64,000 nucleotides of DNA from Candidatus Bathyarchaeota archaeon (GCA_963768425.1 CAVYHV010000006.1:1-64000); one strand, 5' to 3'; shown: positions 942 to 41,368, numbered from the stretch's first letter. Numbers and translations: made by a program. Notes: generated from the sequence alone by a model not told the origin.

Positions 942-981
942 TAGCGCTGGGAGGGGGATACTAACCAATTTACCAGTAAAA
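942..981 (-). repeat. att-like repeat 4: degenerate tRNA-Ser 3' end plus conserved arm
   Basis: tagcgctgggagggggat-actaaccaatttaccagtaaaa versus the tRNA end tggcgccgggagggggat (11217-11234); the arm is shared with 4526 and 8013. Confidence 0.8.
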
Positions 982-1078
982 TTTGTTATTGAAATAAGTG
1001 GACAGCCAGAAAGACGTGGAGCTCAGACCAAATAGTTAATCAATTGGTTTGAAGAGTGAGCTTTTGAGGTTGTAAAAA

Positions 1079-1674
1079 GTGCTTATAATTGGGCTAAGTG
1101 GAAGTCCTGAGTCGGCGGCAACACAGACATGATTTTGCAGGAAGCTTTGGCGGCTGCGAAAGCGGAGGGCGCAGAAGTAAAGCTGATTCGAATTTCTGAT
1201 TATCGTATTCAGCCCTGCAACGGTTGCATGGGCTGCTTTAGCGCTAAGAAATGTGTTATAGACGATGACGGTGAAAAACTTTACAAGATCATAATGGAGG
1301 CTGACGGGATACTATTGGGTAGTCCGTCGTATTTTCAAGGGGTCACCGCTCAAATGAAGATTTTTATCGATAGGATAGGTTTTCTCGCGTTGGCTAGAGG
1401 AAGAAAAGACTTTGCGGAGAAGGTGGGCGGCGTAATAGCTGTTGCTCGTCGGTCAGGCGTTTCGAACACCTGTGGCCAGATGATCACATTCTTAACTGCT
1501 GTAGGAATAGCTATCCCAAGCGGCGGACGAGCGTTCTCTATTGGAAGAGAGAAGGGAGACGTTGCCAAAGACCAGGAGGGCATAGATTCTGCGAGGCACT
1601 TGGGAAAAATGATAGTGCAGACTAAAGTTGCTTTAGATAACTCGAGAAAAAGCAACATTAGTTCATATCCCTGA
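1079..1674 (+). CDS. Flavodoxin-fold iron-sulfur flavoprotein / NADPH-dependent FMN reductase (frameshift near 1110)
   Basis: N-terminus VLIIGLSGSP...GGNT lies upstream of ORF 1129. Motifs PCNGCMGC...C and GSPSYF. Confidence 0.85.
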
Positions 1675-1874
1675 TGAAAATAACGATTCTTTCGTAGAGT
1701 TCATTCTAGCCACTGCCGAAATCTAATGATAATTGCTGGTTAGGCAATCACGACCAGACAAACTGTGTTAAAGGAAGCTCCGATAAGAATTCTTGCACTT
1801 ATTTCAAAATCATTGACAAATGATTCAAAATCACGCTTATTTGCTCTTAATGCCATCGATTATAGCTTCAAAAA

Positions 1875-1915
1875 TGGTGCGGGAAGGGGACACAGGCTCT
1901 AATTTAACAGTAAAA
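1875..1915 (-). repeat. att-like repeat 3 (most degenerate copy)
   Basis: tggtgcgggaagggga...ctaatttaacagtaaaa: a tRNA-3'-end-like core followed by the same aattta(a)cagtaaaa arm. Confidence 0.6.
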
Positions 1916-1927
1916 GGCTTTTGTCAA

Positions 1928-1949
1928 AGCTGGGGACGAGAATTGAGCC
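1928..1949 (-). repeat. Degenerate tRNA-Cys 3'-end fragment
   Basis: agctggggacgagaattgagcc matches the reverse complement of the tRNA-Cys 3' end (agctggggatgggaattgaacc, 27674-27695) with 3 mismatches in 22 nt. Confidence 0.6.
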
Positions 1950-2126
1950 TCCTATTTCGTGAACGTTACCCGCAAATCCATGGTTTTTAGGTGCGAGTTA
2001 TTTTTGATTCAATTTTCTGAATCCAAGTTTGCTTAACAATAAGCTTCGATTTCTCTTGTGCAATCTCGTATTTGCTCAAATTAGTATATCCTAAACTTTA
2101 AATTAGTCCCACTTCAATCAAGATAA

Positions 2127-4321
<2,195 letters not shown>

Positions 4322-4525
4322 CACATGATACACTAGCGATGACCAAATGGTAAGCCATCAGCCCAAAATCAGTTCGAGTCAGAATTTGAGTCCTCAATAA
4401 AGTGGAGACTTCGCCCGGGTTTCCCTTTTTTTTGTTTAAAAGAAGGTTTAGCGGACAGCATACCCGTTAAACGACAAGGGTTCTTTTGAGCATATTTTGT
4501 CGTAATAACTTCAACATGCCCTGAA

Positions 4526-4565
4526 TGGCGCCGGGGGAGGGATACTGTACCAATTTACAGTAAAA
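4526..4565 (-). repeat. att-like repeat 2: tRNA-Ser 3' end plus conserved arm
   Basis: tggcgccgggggagggat-actgtaccaatttacagtaaaa. Confidence 0.85.
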
Positions 4566-4669
4566 ATAGTTGTTGTGGCTTTGTTTTCTGCTTCCCAAAA
4601 GCTTTTAGTATATAGCAAGACATAATTAAATCAATATTTTGGCCCAAAATAGCAGTTGGTTACCCGACT

Positions 4670-6134
4670 ATGCGAAAGAAAAATAGAGTTGGGCGGAATT
4701 TTGTTGATAAATACCGCACTTACGTGGAAAACTCGCCTGTTGCTTTCTTCATTATTAATCCCGAAAGTAAATATGTCAAGGTAAATGATGCTGCTTGTAG
4801 ATTACTTGGTTATTCCAAAGAAGAACTTCTAGAAAAAACTGCCTCAAATCTTGTGTTTGAAGAGGATCTTACATTAGCGCGAAAACATCATTCAAAGTTA
4901 AAAGAAACTGGAAAGTCTGTTACAGAGTTTAGGCTAAAGAGAAAAGATGGGCAACCTGTACATGTTATTTTAAACGCAACACAATTACCAGATGGAAATT
5001 TAATGGCTTTCTGCGAAAACATAACTGAACGCAAGAAAGCTGAAGAAGCTCTTTGGGAAAGTGAGGTCAGATATGAGCAGCTTGTTGACAGGCTGCCTGA
5101 AATGGTTTTTGAAATCGACCTAACTGGGCATATTGCTTTTGCTAATATGAGGGCAGTTGAGCTTTTAGGTTATTCGAAGGATGAGCTTGAGGCTAATTTT
5201 GATGCTAATCGTCTTGTCGCTCCTGAGGATGTCTTGCGTTCAAGAGAAAATATGAGATTAATGTTTGCTAGAGGATTGCGCCAGAGTTATGAATACGTTT
5301 TTGTGAGAAAGAATGGAGAGCGTTTTCCTGTTTTATTGAATAGCGAGCCGATCATAAAAAACGACAAAATTGTTGGGGGTTAGGGGAATTGTGGTTGATA
5401 TAACTGAACGTAAGGATATGGAGAAGAGGCTTCAAGAACAAGAACGTTTGGCTGCTATAGGCACTACGGCAGGTATGGTTGGACATGATATTCGTAATCC
5501 CTTGCAAGCTATGACCGGCGATGTTTACTTAGCCAGGGCGGAATTAGTTCATACTCCTCAAAGTAAAGAGAGAAAAAATGCGTTAGAGAATTTGCAAGAG
5601 ATTGAAAAGAGCATTGATTATATCAACAAGATTGTCGCTGACCTCCAAGATTTTGCTAGAGCTATTTGCCCAGTCGGCAAGGAAACAGACTTAGTTCGCC
5701 TTTTCAAAGAAATTCTACTGAAAAGCAATTTACCAGACAGCATCAAGGTTTTTTGCAAAGTAGACAAAGATGCCAAACGTGCTTTTGTTGACCCAGAGTT
5801 GCTAAAACGAGTTTTAAGTAATTTGGTGCTAAACGCTGTTCAAGCCATGCCTGAGAGCGGAGAACTTTCCGTTAGTGCTTTCATCAAAGGTGAAGGCTTT
5901 GTTATTGAAGTTAAAGACACAGGTGTGGGAATACCTGAAGATGTTAAAGCTAAAATATTTACGCCTATGTTCACGACAAAATCCAAGGGTCAGGGACTCG
6001 GATTGGCAGTTGTGAAACGGTTAACTGAAGCGATGAATGGAACTGTGGCTTTTGAGAGTGAACAAGGTAAAGGAACCAAATTCATTGTACGCTTGCCAAA
6101 CAAGGAGCCAGATGGTAAATTGGTTCACAAGTAA
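4670..6134 (+). CDS. PAS-PAS sensor histidine kinase (frameshift in G-run near 5375)
   Basis: Two PAS domains, H-box GHDIRNPL, N-box NLVLNAVQA, DTGVGI, FTTK, GQGLGL. Confidence 0.92.
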
Positions 6135-6248
6135 ACATAGATTTTTTTGAGAAAACAATACCTGCGGTGCGGAAATTGGCGAGGGAGCCATAGCTCCGAA
6201 CTATTCTGAATCCAAACAACCGCAACCAGGACATTTCTATACAGGGTT

Positions 6249-7616
6249 CTACTTTTTGAGTTGAACACCCTGGCGCCACACAGCGCGGATGGACAGCGTG
6301 TCGGAGATGTTCGTCGTTGGGTCCCCATCGACCAGCAGCAGGTCGGCACGAGCCCCTGGAGCGACTCGGCCTCGGTCGGTGAGGGCGAACCGGCGCGCAG
6401 GGGTGGATGTCGCTGCCTGCAGTGCTTCGACCGGGGTCAATCCAGCCGCGACCAGGAGTTGCAGTTCTTGGTGCAAACTGGCGCCGTGGGCGAGTCCCCC
6501 GAGGCTGGGAATAGGCTCCGACACATCACAACCTGCCAGAATATCCACACCCGCCTTGTGGAGGGCCATGACGCCGGCATAAGCATCTTCAAGCTTTCCT
6601 TCGGGGTAGACGTTCATGCTGCGGGAGAGCGAGTCGAGCCACTTCTGGCTCAGCCTGGAACTTACTCGTTTGTCGGCGGCCAGCGCGGATGCGTTATTGC
6701 CAACGGCAGAGGAGATTGTCACCAGGGTGGGGATAACAAACGCGCCGGAGGATGCAGTGGCATCCACAAATTTGGGGGTAGGCTGACTATCAAAGAACAA
6801 GTGTGCCAGCCCATCTACTCCAGCCGCAATAGCTCGCCTGCCTCCTTCAGCGGTCGTCACGTGGGCGATGGCCATCTTACCATTACGATGAGCTTCTTTT
6901 ACGGCTGCATTGAGGGTTTCATCATTCAGTACAGGAAGTCCGGGGAAACCGATACAGGTTCCGTCCTCTATAAAGATTTTAATGTAGTCGGCTCCTTGGG
7001 CGATCTGTTTGTCTACGAATTTGACCGCCTCGTCAGGGGTCGAGACAGTCGGATAACGGAAGAATAAGCGTATAAGTAAGTTGTTGCTTGAACTCATATA
7101 TTCAGTTGGATGACCTCCTGGAGGAGTGAGGCCCATCCCAGGGGAGCGCAAATCAGCGATATCGCTCCGTTCAGCGATTTTTTTACGCATCCTCGGTGTC
7201 CAATGACCGTTCATCTCCAGCTCTGTGGTGACACCAAACAACAGCGCGTCCCGCAAGCCGTCCAGGTCGGTATGCACATGGGAGTCAATCAAGCCGGGCA
7301 TCAGGGTTGCGCCGTGACCATCGATGACAGTTGCCCCGGCTGGTACCTCGCCACCCACCGCCTGTATATATGCCCCTTTGATCACCACAGTCGTGTCGTC
7401 GATGACACGGTCACCGTCGAAGATCCTCGCGTTGGTTATGGCTGTAATCCGATCTTGTAAGAGTACTGGCTTATTTCTGCCACCCCTCAAAACTCCAACA
7501 GCAAGAGTCCCGGCAACAATGGCCGTTACCGTTTTCAGGAAGGTCTTTTTGGACATTTCACGCTCGTGATTATGCTTGTTTTCATAAATGCATTTTTCAC
7601 ATTTCATAGCAGTCAC
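6249..7616 (-). CDS. Metal-dependent amidohydrolase family protein
   Basis: Motifs LMPGLIDSHVH, GADYIKI, AHV, GLAH, GCD, GRVAPGARADLLLVDGDP. Visibly GC-richer than its flanks. Confidence 0.92.
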   Translation of the reverse strand: MTAMKCEKCIYENKHNHEREMSKKTFLKTVTAIVAGTLAVGVLRGGRNKPVLLQDRITAITNARIFDGDRVIDDTTVVIKGAYIQAVGGEVPAGATVIDGHGATLMPGLIDSHVHTDLDGLRDALLFGVTTELEMNGHWTPRMRKKIAERSDIADLRSPGMGLTPPGGHPTEYMSSSNNLLIRLFFRYPTVSTPDEAVKFVDKQIAQGADYIKIFIEDGTCIGFPGLPVLNDETLNAAVKEAHRNGKMAIAHVTTAEGGRRAIAAGVDGLAHLFFDSQPTPKFVDATASSGAFVIPTLVTISSAVGNNASALAADKRVSSRLSQKWLDSLSRSMNVYPEGKLEDAYAGVMALHKAGVDILAGCDVSEPIPSLGGLAHGASLHQELQLLVAAGLTPVEALQAATSTPARRFALTDRGRVAPGARADLLLVDGDPTTNISDTLSIRAVWRQGVQLKK

Positions 7617-7708
7617 GTCGCATATTCCTTCTTATCGTTGTAGTCGAATACAGTCACTTTCTTATAAAAGTACGATGGGGAGATAAAATGGGGCATGGGT
7701 GGGTTTTG

Positions 7709-7733
7709 TGGTGGGCTGCTGGGATTTGAACCC
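7709..7733 (-). repeat. Isolated tRNA 3'-half fragment (T-arm to CCA) of a tRNA not present in this window
   Basis: Minus strand reads gggttcaaatcccagcagcccacca; no D or anticodon arm upstream. Confidence 0.7.
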
Positions 7734-7972
7734 TTGTCTGACTCGATTGTACTGTCATCTTTTTGCAACAAACAATATAACAAGAAATTTCAATGGGGAT
7801 GGAAGTTTGAGTTGAAGTGCGATTCCCTTCCCGTTTAGGGTTCAAATAAGTAGCTTGCATAAAAATTACCTATGATTCCTCTAATTACCGATGAACTGAT
7901 CGTCATCCTGTTTTTTCAAGAGTTCAAATGACGTAAATCTCTAATCTAAATAAACTTTAACTATATAGATTT

Positions 7973-8054
7973 TAGACAAAATAAGCTCAAAAGCGACCCA
8001 AACTCCAGTAAATGGCGCCGGGAGGGGGGGATACTAGTACCAATTTACCTGAAA
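7973..8054 (-). repeat. att-like repeat 1: left arm + tRNA-Ser 3' end + right arm
   Basis: tagacaaaataagctcaaaa (7973-7992) matches tagtcaaaataagctcaaaa (11178-11197). Core tggcgccgggagggggggat at 8013; arm actagtaccaatttacc. Confidence 0.9.
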
Positions 8055-8173
8055 GGCACTGAGCAGTTATCTTTCTAAAATTGAATATTTTGCTTTTTTA
8101 ACTGAACATGTTATGAGGGAACCGTCAAAGAGTCAACGGTACGCTTTTGCCAAAAGTTCTGGTTATCCGTTCT

Positions 8174-9913
8174 CTATTGCTTTTTTTCATGAAGGGCTTG
8201 CTGGTCGAGATAGTACTTTCCGTTGACTTCTACAAAGATTTTCAGTTTTTCTCTTCGTCTTTTTATGAGTCTTACGAATATTCGGGACAAGCCAAGTTCG
8301 TCAGCTGTTAGGGCTGTTTCGGGGCTGATAGCTCCTTTCTGTTTAAACGTCTGTATAGTCTGATCGATTTTTTCGTCTCTCCAGCCCTGCGGCTCGGTTG
8401 TTTCTTGTTGAGTGGGGTCAGGAGGTGTTGGAGCGATGATAGGTTCAGATTGCATTGGTGTTTGGGTTTGTAGTGTTTCTTTAGTTACAAGGTCAGATGC
8501 TTTGGCTTCATAGTCAGTGCCATTTCTACTGCTATCTTCTTTGGGTTCTCCTGAAGGAGTTTGGTTTAGTTTTATGACGACTTCAGTTTTGTTTTTCACA
8601 GAAATGGACATTGGCAATGAAGCAATGTAACCTGTTGCACTGGCTTTAATTGAGTAATCACCATCTTTGAAATCGCCAAAAACAATTTGCCCTTTGCTAT
8701 TAGTGATGCCTGATAAGATTTGTTGGCCGCTCGCAAAGACGTTTGCTCCAGAAATCGTCGATTGTGTTTGCGAATTTTTCACTGTTACTGTGAATTTGCG
8801 TTGGCGACTGTACCATACAAGGATTAGGAGAAGTAACACTATAATGATGATTATGATTATAATTATCCAGGTCCAGTTAAATGAGCCCGCACCTGAACCT
8901 GTAGTAGTTGTGCTAGAAGGACCAGATATGACCGAAACGTCGTTGCTTACGCCATTAGTAACGTATATCGCTTTGTTGCCAGAATCGTAAGTTCCTACCC
9001 AGGGTGAATTTCCAACGGTTATGGTTTCAAGAACTTTGTTTGTGCTGTCAGATATAACTGCAACTTCGTTGCTTTGATGAAGGGCTACGAATACTTCGCC
9101 TCGGGCAGAATCGTAAATTAACCCTTCAACTTGAACTTCGTCGCTCAAGTCCGAAATAGTAGCAACAACCGTGTAGGTGCTATCCGAAATAACCGTGACA
9201 ACTGCTCCATATGAACCCACACCAGTAGATACGAATATCTCACTTTTCCCAGAATCATAGGCCAAGAATGAAGGATAACCAGGCAGGCTCACGGTTGCAA
9301 CTACTGTATTGGTGCTGTCAGATATTACTGAAAGAGAGTAGTTCTTTGAGTCAGTTTCAAAATTGACTACGAATATCTTGCTCTTGCCAGAATCGTAGGC
9401 AATGCTAAAAGGTTCGACTCCTACGGGTATTGTTCCTACCACAGTATTTGTGCTATCTGAAATTACTGAGACGGTGCCGTCGTACTGATTAGTTACAAAT
9501 AATTCGCTCTTTGCGGAATCGTAAGCTATATTGTAGGGGGATTCTCCAACGGGTATGGTAGCAACTACGGCGTTGGTGCTATCCGAAATAACCGAGACAC
9601 TGTTACTATACAAATTGACTACGAATATCTCACCCAATCGAGAGTCATAAGCTACACCGTATGGGTAGCCTCCAACAGGTATAGTTGCAACTACGGTGTT
9701 AGTCCTGTCTGATATAACAGAGGTAGTATTTTCTTGACCATTGGTTACGAATATCTCGCCTTTGGCAGAGTCATAAGCTGCGCCTGAAGGAGCCTTTCCG
9801 ACCGGAATCGTTGCGGTTACACCTAAGGCATGAACATTGTTAACTGCTGACAACACAAAAAATAAAATGAATAACAATACTAGTGGCTTCCAAACTTCAA
9901 CTTTAATAGACAT
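8174..9913 (-). CDS. YVTN/YncE-type beta-propeller membrane protein (signal peptide, ~7 repeats, Ile-rich TM, Ig-like and C-terminal domains)
   Basis: Repeated AYDS.KGEIFVTN...VSVISDSTNTVVATIPVG units; WIIIIIIIIIVLLLLILVW transmembrane helix. Confidence 0.88.
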   Translation of the reverse strand: MSIKVEVWKPLVLLFILFFVLSAVNNVHALGVTATIPVGKAPSGAAYDSAKGEIFVTNGQENTTSVISDRTNTVVATIPVGGYPYGVAYDSRLGEIFVVNLYSNSVSVISDSTNAVVATIPVGESPYNIAYDSAKSELFVTNQYDGTVSVISDSTNTVVGTIPVGVEPFSIAYDSGKSKIFVVNFETDSKNYSLSVISDSTNTVVATVSLPGYPSFLAYDSGKSEIFVSTGVGSYGAVVTVISDSTYTVVATISDLSDEVQVEGLIYDSARGEVFVALHQSNEVAVISDSTNKVLETITVGNSPWVGTYDSGNKAIYVTNGVSNDVSVISGPSSTTTTGSGAGSFNWTWIIIIIIIIIVLLLLILVWYSRQRKFTVTVKNSQTQSTISGANVFASGQQILSGITNSKGQIVFGDFKDGDYSIKASATGYIASLPMSISVKNKTEVVIKLNQTPSGEPKEDSSRNGTDYEAKASDLVTKETLQTQTPMQSEPIIAPTPPDPTQQETTEPQGWRDEKIDQTIQTFKQKGAISPETALTADELGLSRIFVRLIKRRREKLKIFVEVNGKYYLDQQALHEKKQ

Positions 9914-10351
9914 CCTTCAGCCTTTCCTTCAAAGCGGTTATCTCTAAAAAAGATTTAAGGTTTGCGTTTGCTTGTTTGGGGTACTAGTCAGTGAGAACAT
10001 TCTATATGGCCACAAGTACAAGATGACAGCTGCCGTCAACTAATTATCTCAGCGATAAAAATCAAAGGTCAAAATCGGGATCTAACAACTTGCAGTCTGA
10101 TGAATTAGGCACCAAGCTGAGTAACGAAGACTGAACCGAGATAATTGAGTAGGTTGCTGAGGCTCCGGAATCAAAACTGTTAGGAGAAGAAATCAAAGAG
10201 CAAATCAGTAACCTTAATCCTGAGCCTGTTCAAACCAACCGAAATCTCATTTAGCAGTATTTAGGCGGGATAAATATAATTGAGCGCCCGTAATTTTATT
10301 GCACACCGAAGTTGTGAAAACTTAAATCATACATTGCGTCTTACGTTAAAT

Positions 10352-10576
10352 ATGACAATGAAGACGGTAAGCGTAAGAATATCCGAAGAAGAAAAGCGCC
10401 AATTAAAAAAGTATGGCAGATTATCAGACACCCTAAGGGAAGGCATGAAACTCTACCTGAACAAAAAGAAATCCGACGAGTTGCTATGCAAACTGGAAAA
10501 AATGCAATCTGAAAGCAAAATTAAAACCTCAATTGAGGAAGAAATCAAGCTGATTCGAGAGGATAGAGAACGCTGA
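10352..10576 (+). CDS. Putative RHH/CopG-like VapB antitoxin
   Basis: MKTVSVRISEEEK...LIREDRER; its stop overlaps the start of the PIN gene. Confidence 0.8.
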   Translation: MTMKTVSVRISEEEKRQLKKYGRLSDTLREGMKLYLNKKKSDELLCKLEKMQSESKIKTSIEEEIKLIREDRER

Positions 10577-10950
10577 TAGTTGCCGACAGCAGCTTCATAG
10601 TTGAAGGTCTCCTTAAGAATAAAGAATTACTTGCCAATGACCAGATTGTGGCTCCTGATTTAGTTGTCTACGAAGTTACAAATGCCATTTGGAAGCATGA
10701 ACATCTTTTGAAGGACTTAGAAAACGGTAAACTATACGTATCAATTTTCTACGGTCTATTGGAAGCTGGGAAAATAGAGATCCTAACTCCAAACGAAGAG
10801 TTGATGCAGAAATCATGTTTGATTGCAAAACGGCAAGGAATTACAATATACGATGCAGTTTTCGTTTCGCTGGCAATTAAATTAGGCCTGCTCTTAAAAA
10901 GTTACGACAGAATTCAAATTCGAGCTTTGGAATCTGAGAATAGCCGCTGA
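10573..10950 (+). CDS. vapC: PIN-domain VapC toxin
   Basis: The ORF extends upstream to (L)IVADSSF; motifs YEVTNAIWK, TIYDA, SYD. The apparent start is CTG overlapping the antitoxin TGA. Confidence 0.85.
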   Translation: MIVADSSFIVEGLLKNKELLANDQIVAPDLVVYEVTNAIWKHEHLLKDLENGKLYVSIFYGLLEAGKIEILTPNEELMQKSCLIAKRQGITIYDAVFVSLAIKLGLLLKSYDRIQIRALESENSR

Positions 10951-11216
10951 AAACTTGGCGCAGCAGCGCGCTAAGCGTGGACGGCATATTAAAAGTCTCA
11001 GAATCGGGAAACTGAATAGTTAGCGACATTCAGAAAACGAATTTGTTGTAACCGAAAAAAACTACTTTAGTTGATCAAAAGAAGAATTAGGTAAAGAGAT
11101 CGGGCGCTATATCTGTTTAAGAAGCAAAGAGAGAGTAAGTCTCTTGAACCATTGAAGAAATAGGTCAAATTATTGTCTAGTCAAAATAAGCTCAAAAAAC
11201 ACTCTAATTTGAAAAA

Positions 11217-11330
11217 TGGCGCCGGGAGGGGGATTTGAACCCCCGCGGCCCCAGAGGCCACAAGCTGCTTGGTGTTTGCATTTGGCAAGCATCTCCAGGC
11301 TTGCTCCCTGCCTGGCTAGGATACCCCGGC
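11217..11330 (-). tRNA. tRNA-Ser(GGA) with 26-nt intron at 37/38 (11267-11292); CCA encoded
   Basis: GCCGGGG/CCCGGC acceptor, CAAGC-CTGGAG^A-GCTTG anticodon arm, long variable arm, GGTTCAAATCC, BHB-type splice structure. Confidence 0.93.
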
Positions 11331-11654: not shown

Positions 11655-12452
11655 ATGACCTTTCAAAAAACAGATTTCGTAGTAATCAATTATTCCGCAA
11701 AGGTTAAGGAAACAAACGAAGTTTTCGACACCACCTACGAAGATGTAGCTAAAAAAGAGCACCTTCACAAAGAAGGCGAAATACATGAACCTAAACTGGT
11801 TGTGGTAGGCGAAGGCTGGGTCCTTAAAGCCTTAGATGACAGCTTAACAACCATGGAGCTAAACAAGCCTGCAACCGTTGAGATTTCACCTGAAAAGGGC
11901 TTCGGGCAAAGAGACCCTGAAAAAGTCAAGCGCGTACCACTAAGACAACTATTGGCAAAAGAAATCAACCCCGTTATCGGCGCACGCATAGAATACCAAG
12001 GCAAGATGGCGAGCGTCCGTGCAATTGGCGCGGGAAGAGTTCTCTTAGACTACAATCCTCCCTTGGCAGGCAAAACACTGGTCTACGAGGTCACGATCAG
12101 CAAGAAAATTGAAAGCAATGAAGAAAAAATCGCTGCACTTATCCACCGAAGAATCCCTCAGGTTGAAGAAAAACAGTTCACAATAACTATTCAAGAAAAA
12201 ACCTTAACGATTGACATGCCCGAGGTTGCCTTCTACATTGAAGGAATCCAAATTGCCAAACGCGGTATCGCAATGGATATCCAGAAATTCATCCCTGACT
12301 TAACCGAAACAAAATTCGTCGAAGCCTTCAAAGCAGAACCCAAAGCTGCTCCAGCTACGCCAGCGCCAATCGAACCAGCCGCAACTCCAACATCACCATC
12401 ACCGGCGCCCGAACAATCACCCGAACCAGAAACCAAAGCACCCCCAACTTAA
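11655..12452 (+). CDS. FKBP-type (long archaeal, SlyD-like) peptidyl-prolyl isomerase
   Basis: Motifs FDTT, PEKGFGQRDP, DYNPPLAGKTL; Pro/Ala-rich tail. Confidence 0.92.
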   Translation: MTFQKTDFVVINYSAKVKETNEVFDTTYEDVAKKEHLHKEGEIHEPKLVVVGEGWVLKALDDSLTTMELNKPATVEISPEKGFGQRDPEKVKRVPLRQLLAKEINPVIGARIEYQGKMASVRAIGAGRVLLDYNPPLAGKTLVYEVTISKKIESNEEKIAALIHRRIPQVEEKQFTITIQEKTLTIDMPEVAFYIEGIQIAKRGIAMDIQKFIPDLTETKFVEAFKAEPKAAPATPAPIEPAATPTSPSPAPEQSPEPETKAPPT

Positions 12453-12559: not shown

Positions 12560-13627
12560 TCAATCGATTATTCCTGTTGCCTTCGCCGTTTTCTCACAAT
12601 CTTCAAAACTCAAGTTTAGCTTCTGTAGGATTGTGTAGCGCTCAGGCCTTATTGTCGCGGCTAACTTCAAAGCCTTAACGACATCGATGTCCGCAACACC
12701 CAATTCTTTAGCGGTAGTCGGTGCCCCTATCAACTTTAAGCTGTTCTTGATTCGCTGCCAGTTTGCCTTGTAAAGATAAGCCGAAAGAATTGACCCTACC
12801 CCACATTGTTCTCCGTGCATAGCATGATGCGAATTCACGATGTCCAGCGCGTGGCTAAACAGGTGCTCGGAGCCGCTGCATGGACGACTGCTTCCCGCAA
12901 TGCTCATGGCAACCCCGCAGCTGATCAAAGCCTCCAGAAGCACCCTTAGGCCTTCATCTTGATGATCCACAATAAGCTTTGCGTTCTGAATAACGAGCCT
13001 CGCGCTCATCAAAGCGAGGCTGGCCGCATACTCGCCGTAATACTCGTTTTGCTCCAAATGTGCCAGCTTCCAGTCCTTTACGGATGTAAACTTTGCGATG
13101 ACGTCCCCGCAGCCGCTTACCATGAAACGCCAAGGCGCTTTAGCGATGACTTCTGTGTCTGCGATAATGGCAAGGGGCGCTTGGGCAAGTACCGAATAGG
13201 GTTTATTGGAGCCTTTAATCGAAGCCAGCGGACTCGCAATGCCGTCGTGTGACACTGTAGTGGGCACGCTGATGAAGGGTATGTTTTTGCTTCTTGAACT
13301 TACTTTCGCAGCGTCAATAATCGTTCCTCCGCCCACGCCGAAAAACACCTGCGGCTTCAAGTCCCGTATCTGATTTTCAATTTCTGAAATATCTTTTGTA
13401 GTCATAGTTTTGACAAGAAGAAAATCAACCGATAAGCCTGATTCAGCGATAAGGTCTGAAACGGTTTTTCCTGCAAGATCGTAACATATCGCGTCCGACA
13501 TTACAAGGGCTCTTCCTTTGAGGCGTAACCGTTTCGTAACTTCAGGAATCCGCTGAAGCGTTCCTTTTCCAACGATGACCTCGCGTGGAAGCTGCATATA
13601 ATGGTAATTTAAAGTCAAGCCTACCAC
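12560..13627 (-). CDS. egsA: sn-glycerol-1-phosphate dehydrogenase
   Basis: Motifs GVGGGTIID, SVPTTVSHDGIASP, SRPCSGSEHLFSH, HGEQCG, RPERYTIL. Confidence 0.95.
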   Translation of the reverse strand: MVGLTLNYHYMQLPREVIVGKGTLQRIPEVTKRLRLKGRALVMSDAICYDLAGKTVSDLIAESGLSVDFLLVKTMTTKDISEIENQIRDLKPQVFFGVGGGTIIDAAKVSSRSKNIPFISVPTTVSHDGIASPLASIKGSNKPYSVLAQAPLAIIADTEVIAKAPWRFMVSGCGDVIAKFTSVKDWKLAHLEQNEYYGEYAASLALMSARLVIQNAKLIVDHQDEGLRVLLEALISCGVAMSIAGSSRPCSGSEHLFSHALDIVNSHHAMHGEQCGVGSILSAYLYKANWQRIKNSLKLIGAPTTAKELGVADIDVVKALKLAATIRPERYTILQKLNLSFEDCEKTAKATGIID

Positions 13628-17535: not shown

Positions 17536-17854
17536 AGCGGTGGACCGCTGCGGTTCGACGTCTAGACTCCGTATGGCGCTTCAAGCCCTACGCTCTTACC
17601 CGCACCCCCTTGAGCGCGTAGCGTCCAAACTTAGGTTGCTCTCTCCCGAGCCTAGCCGGGTTCGCCTGGTAGACAATGAAGCAGCTCCCCTACGGAAACT
17701 GCTCACAGACCGCCAGCCCCAAAGGACGGATAGTCAATGTTTCGGACATGAAGATCCAGGCGGCCTTTTACGCCTCATCCGCAGGTGTCAGCCCGTCGTA
17801 TAGAGGGTTTACGGTTTCAATGGACCCCTACCCCACCGCCTAAGATCCACCGCC
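17536..17854 (-). ncRNA. ffs: Archaeal signal recognition particle RNA (7S)
   Basis: About 320 nt. Ends pair (GGCGGTGGATC / GGTCCACCGCT); helix-8 motif AGGCTCGGGAGAGAGCA; TATA-like TTTTAAAG about 25 nt upstream. Confidence 0.88.
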
Positions 17855-27622: not shown

Positions 27623-27695
27623 GCTGGGGTGGCCGAACGGCTCAGGCGACAGCCTGCAGAGCTGTTATATGTGGGTTCAATTCCCATCCCCAGCT
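27623..27695 (+). tRNA. tRNA-Cys(GCA) copy 1 (CCA not encoded)
   Basis: GCTGGGG/CCCCAGC acceptor, ACAGC-CTGCAGA-GCTGT anticodon arm, U73. Confidence 0.95.
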
Positions 27696-27985
27696 CTTTT
27701 TCCGAGCCCTCTGCTTTCACGGGATGATTTAACGGTTTAATTGCGTTTCTTCAAAAGCTTTGCGTCGCCAATAGCATAGACATGTTCGAATCCGTTTTCA
27801 ATCAACTGGGTTGTTTAAGATTGTTTGAGCTTGAATTCTCAGGTTGAAGGGTGGAGAAACCCGAATTATCATGTGTCATTCTGTTTAAACTGAAGTTAGA
27901 TAATATCGAGAAAGTAGTTGAGGAAGCGTTACAATAAAAAGATGTTAGATGAATTGTTTAAATAGAAATTTATTATATCTTGGGT

Positions 27986-41292: not shown

Positions 41293-41368
41293 GCCTAGGT
41301 GGCCGAGTCGCATAAGCAATCGCCTGCAGAGCGATTTTACAGGGGTTCAATTCCCCTCCTAGGCTCCA
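41293..41368 (+). tRNA. tRNA-Cys(GCA) copy 2 with atypical D-arm
   Basis: GCCTAGG/CCTAGGC-T-CCA acceptor, ATCGC-CTGCAGA-GCGAT anticodon arm, AGGGG-TTCAATT-CCCCT; TATA-like CTTATATAA upstream. Confidence 0.85.

Follow-up and report, generated by a model that had tools for sequence, protein, structure and literature searches.

The DNA considered here is the first 64 kb of contig C6 (CAVYHV010000006.1:1-64000; hereafter the window, 64,000 nucleotides) of a Candidatus Bathyarchaeota archaeon (GCA_963768425.1), whose genome, G000, comprises 2.96 Mb in 33 contigs and is 91% complete. Behind a tRNA-Ser(GGA) gene of this window lies a 10.3-kb array in which at least five small units, each 0.9-3.2 kb long, follow one another without a recombinase gene. 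As the window is the beginning of C6, the array abuts the contig end (position 1). Presence/absence differences between relatives fall exactly at the copies of the tRNA 3′ end that mark the joints, and the arm accompanying these copies is a signal found across the Bathyarchaeia. It appears fairly probable that the units are att-bounded, non-autonomous cassettes, inserted serially at the 3′ end of tRNA-Ser(GGA) by a recombinase acting in trans. The observation was first made by a model from the sequence of the window (the sequence-only reading) and is confirmed; the interpretation then given to it is partly supported.

Bathyarchaeia are abundant and uncultured, and gene exchange among them is little understood. 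If the reading is correct, a class-wide format of recombinase-less cassettes with a 17-nucleotide (nt) signature would explain part of their accessory genome, represented here by a catalase-peroxidase, a flavoprotein, a sensor kinase, a surface protein and a toxin-antitoxin pair. Flexible genes could then be mapped in metagenome-assembled genomes (MAGs) by this simple handle, and the format would point to a site-specific recombination system with an enzyme yet to be recognised. If the units were only decay products or patches of homologous exchange, the locus would be an ordinary tRNA island.

Cores, arms and units of the array

The tRNA-Ser(GGA) gene is matched by the Rfam tRNA model at 11220-11330, minus strand, with 39.7 bits against a gathering score of 29. 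ARAGORN missed it at default settings and called it at c[11217,11330] when introns were allowed. The repeated core corresponds to the last 18 nt of this gene, CCA included (11217-11234). The 18-mer is found without mismatch at 11217 and with two mismatches each at 942, 4526 and 8013, all on the same strand; the chance expectation is 0.03, and four matches were reached in none of 100 shuffles. This bears out the repeats that had been placed at 8013, 4526, 942 and, in a degenerate form, 1875.

Each full core copy carries the arm CCAATTTACCAGTAAAA. The right arm after the core copies reads GAT-ACT(A)G(T/C)A-CCAATTTACC(A)GTAAAA. Its stretch ACCAATTTACC(A)GTAAAA stands after each full core and, as had been claimed, also after the degenerate copy at 1875, where degenerate core and arm extend over 1875-1915 (arm-profile match at 1886-1940, E 3.8e-07). 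A left arm, TAG(A/T)CAAAATAAGCTCAAAA, precedes both the tRNA end and the 8013 copy (11178-11197 and 7973-7992), and the two are 95% identical; a degenerate left arm (4484-4503) lies ahead of the 4526 copy. The copy nearest the tRNA had been considered the best conserved. Since all three cores have two mismatches, this holds for the flanking left arm only. Two additional joints are found within the segment formerly given as 3.5 kb, a truncated core, TGGCGAGGGAG, at 6176-6186 and a 25-nt reverse complement of the 3′ end of another tRNA at 7709-7733. Thus, the repeats that delimit the four segments stand, but this segment is composite and not a single unit. Directly after the truncated core, in place of the conserved arm, positions 6187-6205 form a perfect 5-bp hairpin (GGAGC-CATA-GCTCC). 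From the tRNA outward, the locus is organized as follows.

11217-11330, minus: tRNA-Ser(GGA), with a 26-nt intron and encoded CCA (Rfam; ARAGORN with introns)
8031-11216: cassette 1, 3.19 kb; right arm 8031-8056, left arm 11178-11216
10648-10950, plus: PIN protein, N-terminally short, cassette 1 (Pfam)
10280-10576, plus: VapB-like protein, cassette 1 (Pfam)
8174-9913, minus: YVTN/YNCE-type propeller protein, cassette 1 (Pfam)
8013-8030, plus: core copy, two mismatches; left arm 7973-8012 precedes
7709-7733, plus: 25-nt 3′-end fragment of another tRNA (TGG, acceptor, T arm), reverse complement; homology to genome G103 breaks here
6188-8012: cassette 2a, 1.8 kb, composite (amidohydrolase, 68-amino-acid (aa) open reading frame (ORF), left-arm region)
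7654-7860, minus: 68-aa ORF, cassette 2a
6249-7616, minus: amidohydrolase, cassette 2a (Pfam)
6176-6186, plus: truncated core, right arm absent; in metagenome contig L142, the tRNA starts exactly at this point
4544-6175: cassette 2b, 1.6 kb; right arm 4544-4567
4670-6134, plus: PAS histidine kinase (PAS + HisKA/HATPase), cassette 2b (Pfam); split by a 1-nt indel in C6
4526-4543, plus: core copy, two mismatches; degenerate left arm 4484-4503
1893-4525: cassette 3a, 2.6 kb; degenerate right arm 1893-1915
2148-4321, plus: catalase-peroxidase katG, cassette 3a (Pfam peroxidase); 1-nt frameshift in C6
1875-1892, plus: degenerate core (TGGTGCGGGAAGGGGACA), arm-profile match
960-1874: cassette 3b, 0.9 kb; right arm 960-981
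1129-1674, plus: FMN_red-type flavoprotein, cassette 3b (Pfam)
942-959, plus: distal core copy, two mismatches
1-941, plus: distal flank, terminal (3′) part of a PQQ/Big-domain surface-protein gene that exists in multiple copies and ends in a conserved 55-nt tail; the contig ends at position 1

The Pfam matches (FMN_red, peroxidase/katG, PAS with HisKA/HATPase, amidohydrolase, YNCE/YVTN and PIN) agree with the gene content given by the sequence-only reading. The cargo genes have mixed orientations (+ + + - - +). No integrase or integrase fragment was found on C6:1-11330 by six-frame searches of the whole genome, which gave PF00589 at 7 places and PF16795 at one, the latter on contig C8; the segments indeed lack an integrase, as had been stated. 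Beyond the tRNA gene follow an FKBP gene (11655-12452) and an Fe-ADH gene (12560-13627).

The reading frames of katG, the PAS kinase and the PQQ-like gene (3-607) are interrupted in C6 by single-nt homopolymer indels. In the twin contig C2, which is 97.4% identical, the three genes are all intact (731, 505 and 233 aa, respectively); the C6 versions probably reflect consensus errors or else pseudogenes of very recent origin. C2 extends 17.7 kb past the end of C6, with a PQQ-type surface protein, TrmB, PAS kinases, PAP2, SnoaL and others; no integrase is found among the 10 ORFs of this continuation. C2 and C27 are strain-variant duplicates inside the bin.

Several further observations concern the cargo and the neighbourhood. 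The 55-nt 3′ tail of the PQQ/Big-domain gene family (TTCTCC..CAGAGCCTCAGCAAACCC) occurs at 700-890 of the window and in at least 14 other places of G000, among them C17:37997, C28:13321 and C10:101753, and a tRNA-3′-like fragment lies within about 100 nt downstream in 5 of the 15 copies examined. A second katG, with 89.7% DNA identity to the window copy, is present at C14:37892-40219 and is likewise broken (ORFs of 187 and 538 aa); an arm-bearing joint (C14:34953-35007) lies 2.9 kb from it. This paralogue was considered as a moved cassette and rejected, its homology being limited to the gene and about 150 nt upstream, joints excluded. The window also contains an archaeal signal recognition particle RNA (17538-17852, minus strand, 146.5 bits) and, separated from each other by 13.7 kb, two tRNA-Cys(GCA) genes (27623-27696 and 41293-41368).

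Joints, occupancy and spread of the arm

In relatives, ACTGGTAAA(A/T) directly precedes the core and is the inverse of the TTTACCAGT of the arm. Such inverted ends flank the core in G016, G013, G088, G099, G106 and G029, as well as in 13 of 79 metagenome joints, at a constant 12-13 nt in 12 of these. G038, a genome of another family, has them as a perfect inverted repeat, or palindrome, with a single-stranded DNA fold of z = -3.2. The right inverted repeat is 7-9 nt from the direct repeat. In the window, the left inverted repeat is degenerate; the single-stranded folds of joints 942, 4526 and 8013 are no better than shuffles (z = -0.44, -0.39 and +1.38). The direct repeat without its CCA measures 15 nt. 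The cassettes are consequently described as having short inverted ends, flanked by 15-18-nt direct repeats. The left arm is missing beside the tRNA in G123, G003 and G019 and must therefore belong to the cassettes and not to the native trailer of the tRNA.

Two other views of the joint were considered and rejected. As a structured RNA, it gives -2 kcal/mol and 4 pairs with RNAalifold on 9 joints. As coding sequence, namely part of a split SSV-type integrase, the arm has frames that are not conserved between copies and no PF16795/PF00589 match. In sense orientation, the arm overlaps the CCA of real tRNAs at loci L238 and L013. In 18 of 77 metagenome joints, such as those of loci L099, L107, L119 and L123, a sense T arm-acceptor-CCA (GAGAGTTCGAATCTCTCCCGGGCTACCA) is found about 20 nt after the arm and is followed by another conserved stretch, so that two tRNA-like ends stand back to back. 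The genus block GAGTCGGACCGG..TTACCCC may be a degenerate form of this sense T arm-acceptor-CCA.

Occupancy was compared by collecting the FKBP-side neighbourhood from 20 genomes of the genus which, with G000, gave 21 regions. Eleven of these hold tRNA-Ser(GGA), and six of the eleven have further arm-bearing joints (G000, G103, G016, G061, G088, G099); G013 and G106 are two more genomes with arm-bearing joints at this tRNA. Content and order at the locus, which the sequence-only reading had proposed to compare, are not identical: G013, G061, G088 and G099 carry other cassettes. The flanks (tRNA and FKBP gene) are 80-99% identical among relatives. The rows of blocks, as read from these sequences, indicate that blocks are still being added or removed.

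The closest genome, G103, has an FKBP gene 99% identical to that of G000 and shares flank, flavoprotein, katG, kinase and amidohydrolase at 90-93% identity, cassette 1 being absent. To the left of its 8013 joint, the window is homologous to the tRNA-proximal flank of G103. Hence, G000 equals G103 plus 8031-11216, both breakpoints being in the core. In metagenome contig L142, which shows 94-95% identity in the kinase and in tRNA-FKBP-FeADH, the sequence downstream of the kinase runs directly into the tRNA: 6188-11212 is missing between two core copies, which leaves 5.04 kb extra in G000 with TGGCG(A/CC)GGGAG on both sides. In G016, the kinase cassette, with an intact kinase of 496 aa, also adjoins the tRNA. 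Cassette 2a is present in G103 and absent from L142 and G016. Overall, the differences among relatives are largely nested, the newest unit standing beside the tRNA.

The propeller gene of cassette 1 has a patchy distribution, being found in 8 of 100 other genus genomes at E<=1e-150, and the best homologue of its protein is 73% identical. In G106, the gene forms a 2.2-kb single-gene cassette directly beside tRNA-Ser(GGA); in G029, it lies on another contig, as an internal cassette. In both, the right arm and the end made of upstream (promoter) region plus left arm match those of the window. The same single-gene cassette with the same ends is thus found in other arrays.

Twenty public sequencing runs, in the form of assembled contigs, each contain at most 0.18 of the sampled words. 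Their contigs give little or no cover at 7813-8680 and 9983-10850, which proves nothing. Three runs each have a single contig with a joint 1821->11212 (sides of 31-34 nt, at a likeness threshold of 90), which gives no more than a weak hint of a strain in which the flavoprotein cassette adjoins the tRNA. Backward joints in these contigs fall inside the YVTN repeats.

The arm was also sought in the rest of the genome and in relatives, as the sequence-only reading had suggested. A profile trained on metagenome copies only gave 18 sites in G000 at E<=0.1, including the genuine tRNA-Ser(GGA) and tRNA-Ser(TGA) genes and three sites on the twin contig C2. A number of the sites come after the 3′ end of some other tRNA; on C10, for example, a Ser(TGA) core lies 1 kb from tRNA-Ser(TGA). 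The 17-mer, with at most one mismatch, occurs in 22 of 61 relatives, often in multiple copies and as same-strand pairs 1-7 kb apart; a reversed-pattern control gave one match. The gapped pattern GGGAT-N5-8-CAATTTACCAGTAAAA is found in 83 stretches of a one-genome-per-species collection, where 76 of the 80 matches listed are MAGs of Bathyarchaeota/Bathyarchaeia, and in at least 120 metagenome contigs. Across families, conservation of the 17-mer contrasts with unrelated flanks. The cargo around the arm also differs between sites: among 733 ORFs compared, the largest family spans 5 of 80 loci. The tRNAs called in the 80 genome loci were, in 11 of 11 cases, on the side and strand predicted by the cassette model, as in the window. 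Viral contigs of IMG/VR were rejected as arm carriers; all 21 exact matches there are without a tRNA-like core and are attributed to chance.

A proposed recombinase in trans and the alternatives

A unit as integrated starts with the right arm GAT-ACTAGCA-CCAATTTACCAGTAAAA and ends with the left arm ..CAAAATAAGCTCAAAA.., to which ACTGGTAAAA is added in relatives. Neighbouring units are separated by a copy of the last 15-18 nt of the tRNA. Under the favoured reading, the joined ends of a unit (left arm, core, right arm) would make an attP-like site, and a recombinase encoded elsewhere, most likely a tyrosine recombinase, would recombine this site with the core at the tRNA 3′ end. Insertion would restore the tRNA; the new cassette would adjoin it, and the older ones would be pushed outward. 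The enzyme and a circular intermediate are inferred, as is the view that each difference arose by insertion and not by precise loss.

Candidates for the enzyme were sought in G000 and around the arm. Elsewhere in G000, five PF00589 proteins above cut-off and one SSV-type protein are encoded. The tyrosine recombinase genes of the genome lie at C14:260427-261785, C28:17805-19166, C30:106 kb, C30:110 kb and C30:143 kb, the last being XerA-like, with the SSV-type gene on C8. None of these six recombinases attains the NCBIfam cut-off for integron integrase or XerA, the best TIGR02249 score being 149.4 bits against 265. In this 91% complete genome, Cas1 (PF01867) gave 0 matches and no serine recombinase was found. 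At a distance of up to 4-8 kb from the arm, integrase-like ORFs are present at three of 80 metagenome loci and two of 80 genome loci (5/160). Presence and absence of recombinases and of the arm were compared across 36 genomes of the genus. Neither the integrase of contig C28 type nor Cas1 is associated with the arm; for Cas1, the counts are 8 of 15 arm-bearing and 9 of 21 arm-less genomes. The trans-acting tyrosine recombinase is therefore proposed by exclusion and analogy, not as a result.

A family of tyrosine integrases of 430-500 aa, that of locus L054, deserves mention. It is present in 87 of 101 genus genomes (in G000 at C14:260232-261785; also loci L059-L088). In 24 of 30 loci it lies at most about 130 nt from a tRNA, with which it is co-oriented in 9 cases and convergent in 15. 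The co-oriented layout is upstream of tRNA-Pro(GGG), tRNA-Arg(TCG) or tRNA-Asp, and the convergent one behind tRNA-Leu, tRNA-Cys or tRNA-Ala; by tRNA-Leu(TAG), the flank is alike in several species, as if the integrase were a resident gene. Seven convergent integrase-tRNA loci, searched over 20 kb, contained one tRNA-end repeat (L095), and the arm is absent beside it. At L054 and L055, integrase, tRNA, cassette and arm follow one another. This was considered as a possible linked enzyme, but the proximity was treated as a coincidence because the cores at those arms mismatch the neighbouring tRNA. The last ~400 nt of L142 hold an integrase fragment convergent behind tRNA-Arg(CCT), 2.7 kb from the tRNA-Ser array; it is 63% identical to a sequence at C30:110 kb of G000, and G000 has other genes at the corresponding place (14076 onward).

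A number of facts weigh against the proposed serial insertion in trans. No recombinase family adjoins the arm or tracks it. The arm is absent from all the tRNA-adjacent loci of the 430-500-aa family examined, and the family gave no match at E<=1e-10 in G012, a genome that bears the arm. Integrases related to the C28 type are present in 8 of 15 genomes with the arm and in 10 of 21 without it. In the window, the arms at 1875 and 4526 are partly degenerate and joint 6176 has no right arm. Circular forms were sought as terminal repeats and seen in none of 80 metagenome contigs, and neither empty-site joints nor circles were seen in the public-run data, which consist of assembled contigs only. The nesting is not pure either, since G123 has katG and lacks the kinase cassette, so that losses or replacements also occur. 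Precise loss through homologous recombination between direct repeats of 40-60 nt, or gains through homologous exchange with relatives, could account for the differences, and inverted 13-nt ends with direct repeats would also suit a transposon. Of the serial capture in trans put forward by the sequence-only reading, the integrase-less units, the shared arms, the core-exact differences and the largely nested order hold. Strict chronology is blurred by losses such as that in G123 and by the composite middle segment.

Three other explanations may be envisaged. In the first place, the units could be residues of integrase-bearing elements of one family that entered at tRNA-Ser one after another and have since been stripped of their integrase and of most genes, the arms being conserved by common descent only. 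Serial integration with decay is documented in the accounts given of tycheposon islands, where partial tRNAs and fragmented integrases occur (10.1101/2020.12.28.424599), and in the definition of cis-mobilizable elements, CIMEs (PMC5704250). TRNA-adjacent integrases are common in the genus (87/101 genomes), and the degenerate or truncated joints at 1875 and 6176 would suit such a history. However, no residue of a large integrase-bearing element is detectable in the array: the six-frame search gave no integrase fragment in the five units, not even in cassette 1, which is absent from G103 and L142, themselves 93-95% identical. The rarity of integrases near the arm (5/160), the armless L095 repeat as the sole one among the convergent loci, and the conservation of the 17-mer across families amid unrelated flanks speak in the same sense. 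Moreover, the cassettes often hold a single gene, with joints about 200 nt or less from the gene ends, and the same ends are found in three species. Decay is hence held to be unlikely.

The joints might alternatively serve as portable patches of homology, by which cassettes would be swapped, lost and gained through recombination with the DNA of relatives, a dedicated recombinase being unnecessary. They offer 40-100 nt of similar sequence within flanks that are 80-99% identical among relatives, no integrase is needed for precise loss between direct repeats, and no recombinase is tied to the site. Such exchange would leave unexplained why a 17-mer is nearly invariant across an order, beside many different tRNA cores, why breakpoints fall inside the 18-nt core and not in the longer homologous flanks, and why internal joints have a fixed palindromic layout; we regard it as decidedly unlikely. 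Finally, the units might be miniature non-autonomous transposons with terminal inverted repeats of about 13 nt (CCAATTTACCAGT / ACTGGTAAA(A/T)TGG), which would duplicate 15-18 nt of the tRNA end and would be moved by a casposase or an unknown transposase. The inverted ends around the core in six relatives and 13 of 79 metagenome joints, perfect in G038, the 15-nt direct repeat left when CCA is set aside, and the tandem casposons described at one site (PMC6563490) are in keeping with this idea. Yet Cas1 was not found in G000 (91% complete) and does not follow the arm in the genus (8/15 versus 9/21); 7-9 nt separate the right inverted repeat from the direct repeat, and in the window the left inverted repeat is degenerate. 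A transposon origin is accordingly judged very improbable.

A broader form of the trans-acting recombinase reading may be put forward tentatively, as a possibility that falls short of being likely. The arrays would belong to a cassette system common to the Bathyarchaeia, parallel to the integron in function and built of different parts: several tRNA 3′ ends would serve as capture sites, a palindromic signature (ACTGGTAAA - tRNA-tail core - CCAATTTACCAGTAAAA) would mark units of one to a few genes, and a dedicated recombinase, encoded elsewhere or on unbinned extrachromosomal DNA, would insert, excise and reshuffle them. If so, these uncultured archaea would share a pool of accessory genes.

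Relation to known mobile systems

Integrons have been reported in Archaea, according to the account in 10.1101/2022.02.06.479319. The array resembles an integron in that small recombinase-less cassettes, each with a recombination site, are added at one fixed site on the anchor side. It differs by the lack of IntI and of an intI-attI-Pc platform, the anchor being here a tRNA 3′ end, and by window joints without an attC-like fold. In addition, the genes lie in both orientations with their own upstream regions, in place of the promoterless co-oriented cassettes typical of integrons; the YVTN cassette even keeps a conserved upstream region in G106 and G029. The array departs from the integron in every defining feature tested, and the term integron-like, used in the sequence-only reading, is retained as an analogy only: no score reaches the IntI level, the attC fold is absent, and genes run both ways. 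In the pdif modules of Acinetobacter plasmids, movement is ensured by the host XerC/XerD, which act on 28-bp sites in inverted pairs. As in the array, small cargo modules, toxin-antitoxin genes included, lack a recombinase of their own, carry short conserved sites and are presumably served in trans by a housekeeping recombinase. Here, in contrast, the repeats are direct, derived from a tRNA and chromosomal.

Archaeal gene capture by SSV-type, suicidal integrases (PMC7253208) is reportedly described by She et al. (2001). It is similar in that foreign DNA is fixed behind archaeal tRNA genes with tRNA-end repeats as bounds. It leaves halves of the integrase gene at the borders, whereas the array is without any PF16795/PF00589 match. 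Family 2 casposons, which occur in tandem (PMC6563490; see also PMC4779613), resemble the array in being stacked at the 3′ end of a tRNA, with inverted ends and with direct repeats that measure about 15 nt. The array differs by the absence of Cas1 from G000, by the absence of a polymerase, and by the spacer between inverted and direct repeats. As in a classical tRNA island, the tRNA is restored and displaced 3′ fragments are left behind (8013, 4526, 942), but there is no integrase inside the element.

Arrays of archaeal and bacterial tyrosine-recombinase elements, as well as tandem casposons, are known (see the account in PMC6563490). The tycheposon islands of Prochlorococcus, as portrayed in 10.1101/2020.12.28.424599, re-use one tRNA site, push older elements inward to the island and leave partial tRNAs. 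Likewise, cargo modules are placed here at few tRNA genes, with partial tRNA copies between them and niche-adaptive cargo. Tycheposons carry their own tyrosine or large serine recombinase, which is their hallmark, and often replication genes, according to the same description; in the array, no such recombinase is found, the units are smaller, and 5 of 160 loci have an integrase close to the arm.

CIMEs keep att sites and lack integration genes. In the account of PMC5704250, they are decayed integrative and conjugative or integrative and mobilizable elements (ICEs/IMEs) that move with a neighbouring ICE, for example the relatives of ICESt1/ICESt3 in streptococci. The array fits their functional definition, with direct repeats of the target 3′ end as bounds and no integration or transfer genes. 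It further resembles them, as they are described there, by attL/attR-type ends and by tandem arrangement at the 3′ end of the target gene. Unlike CIMEs, the units here hold mostly 1-3 genes, have a short class-wide end signal and use several tRNAs. No remnants of integrase or transfer genes and no adjoining helper or autonomous element are found in the window or on C2, and an autonomous ancestor with the arms was not found in 160 loci of 4-8 kb each. Among the papers listed by the literature searches, none describes the arm or integrase-less cassette arrays in Bathyarchaeia, which does not prove that no description exists. Of the known systems, the array comes nearest to CIMEs with tandem accretion and to tycheposon islands, from which it is set apart by its gene-sized units, by the lack of remnants or of an adjoining helper, by a class-wide 17-nt end signal and by the use of several tRNAs.

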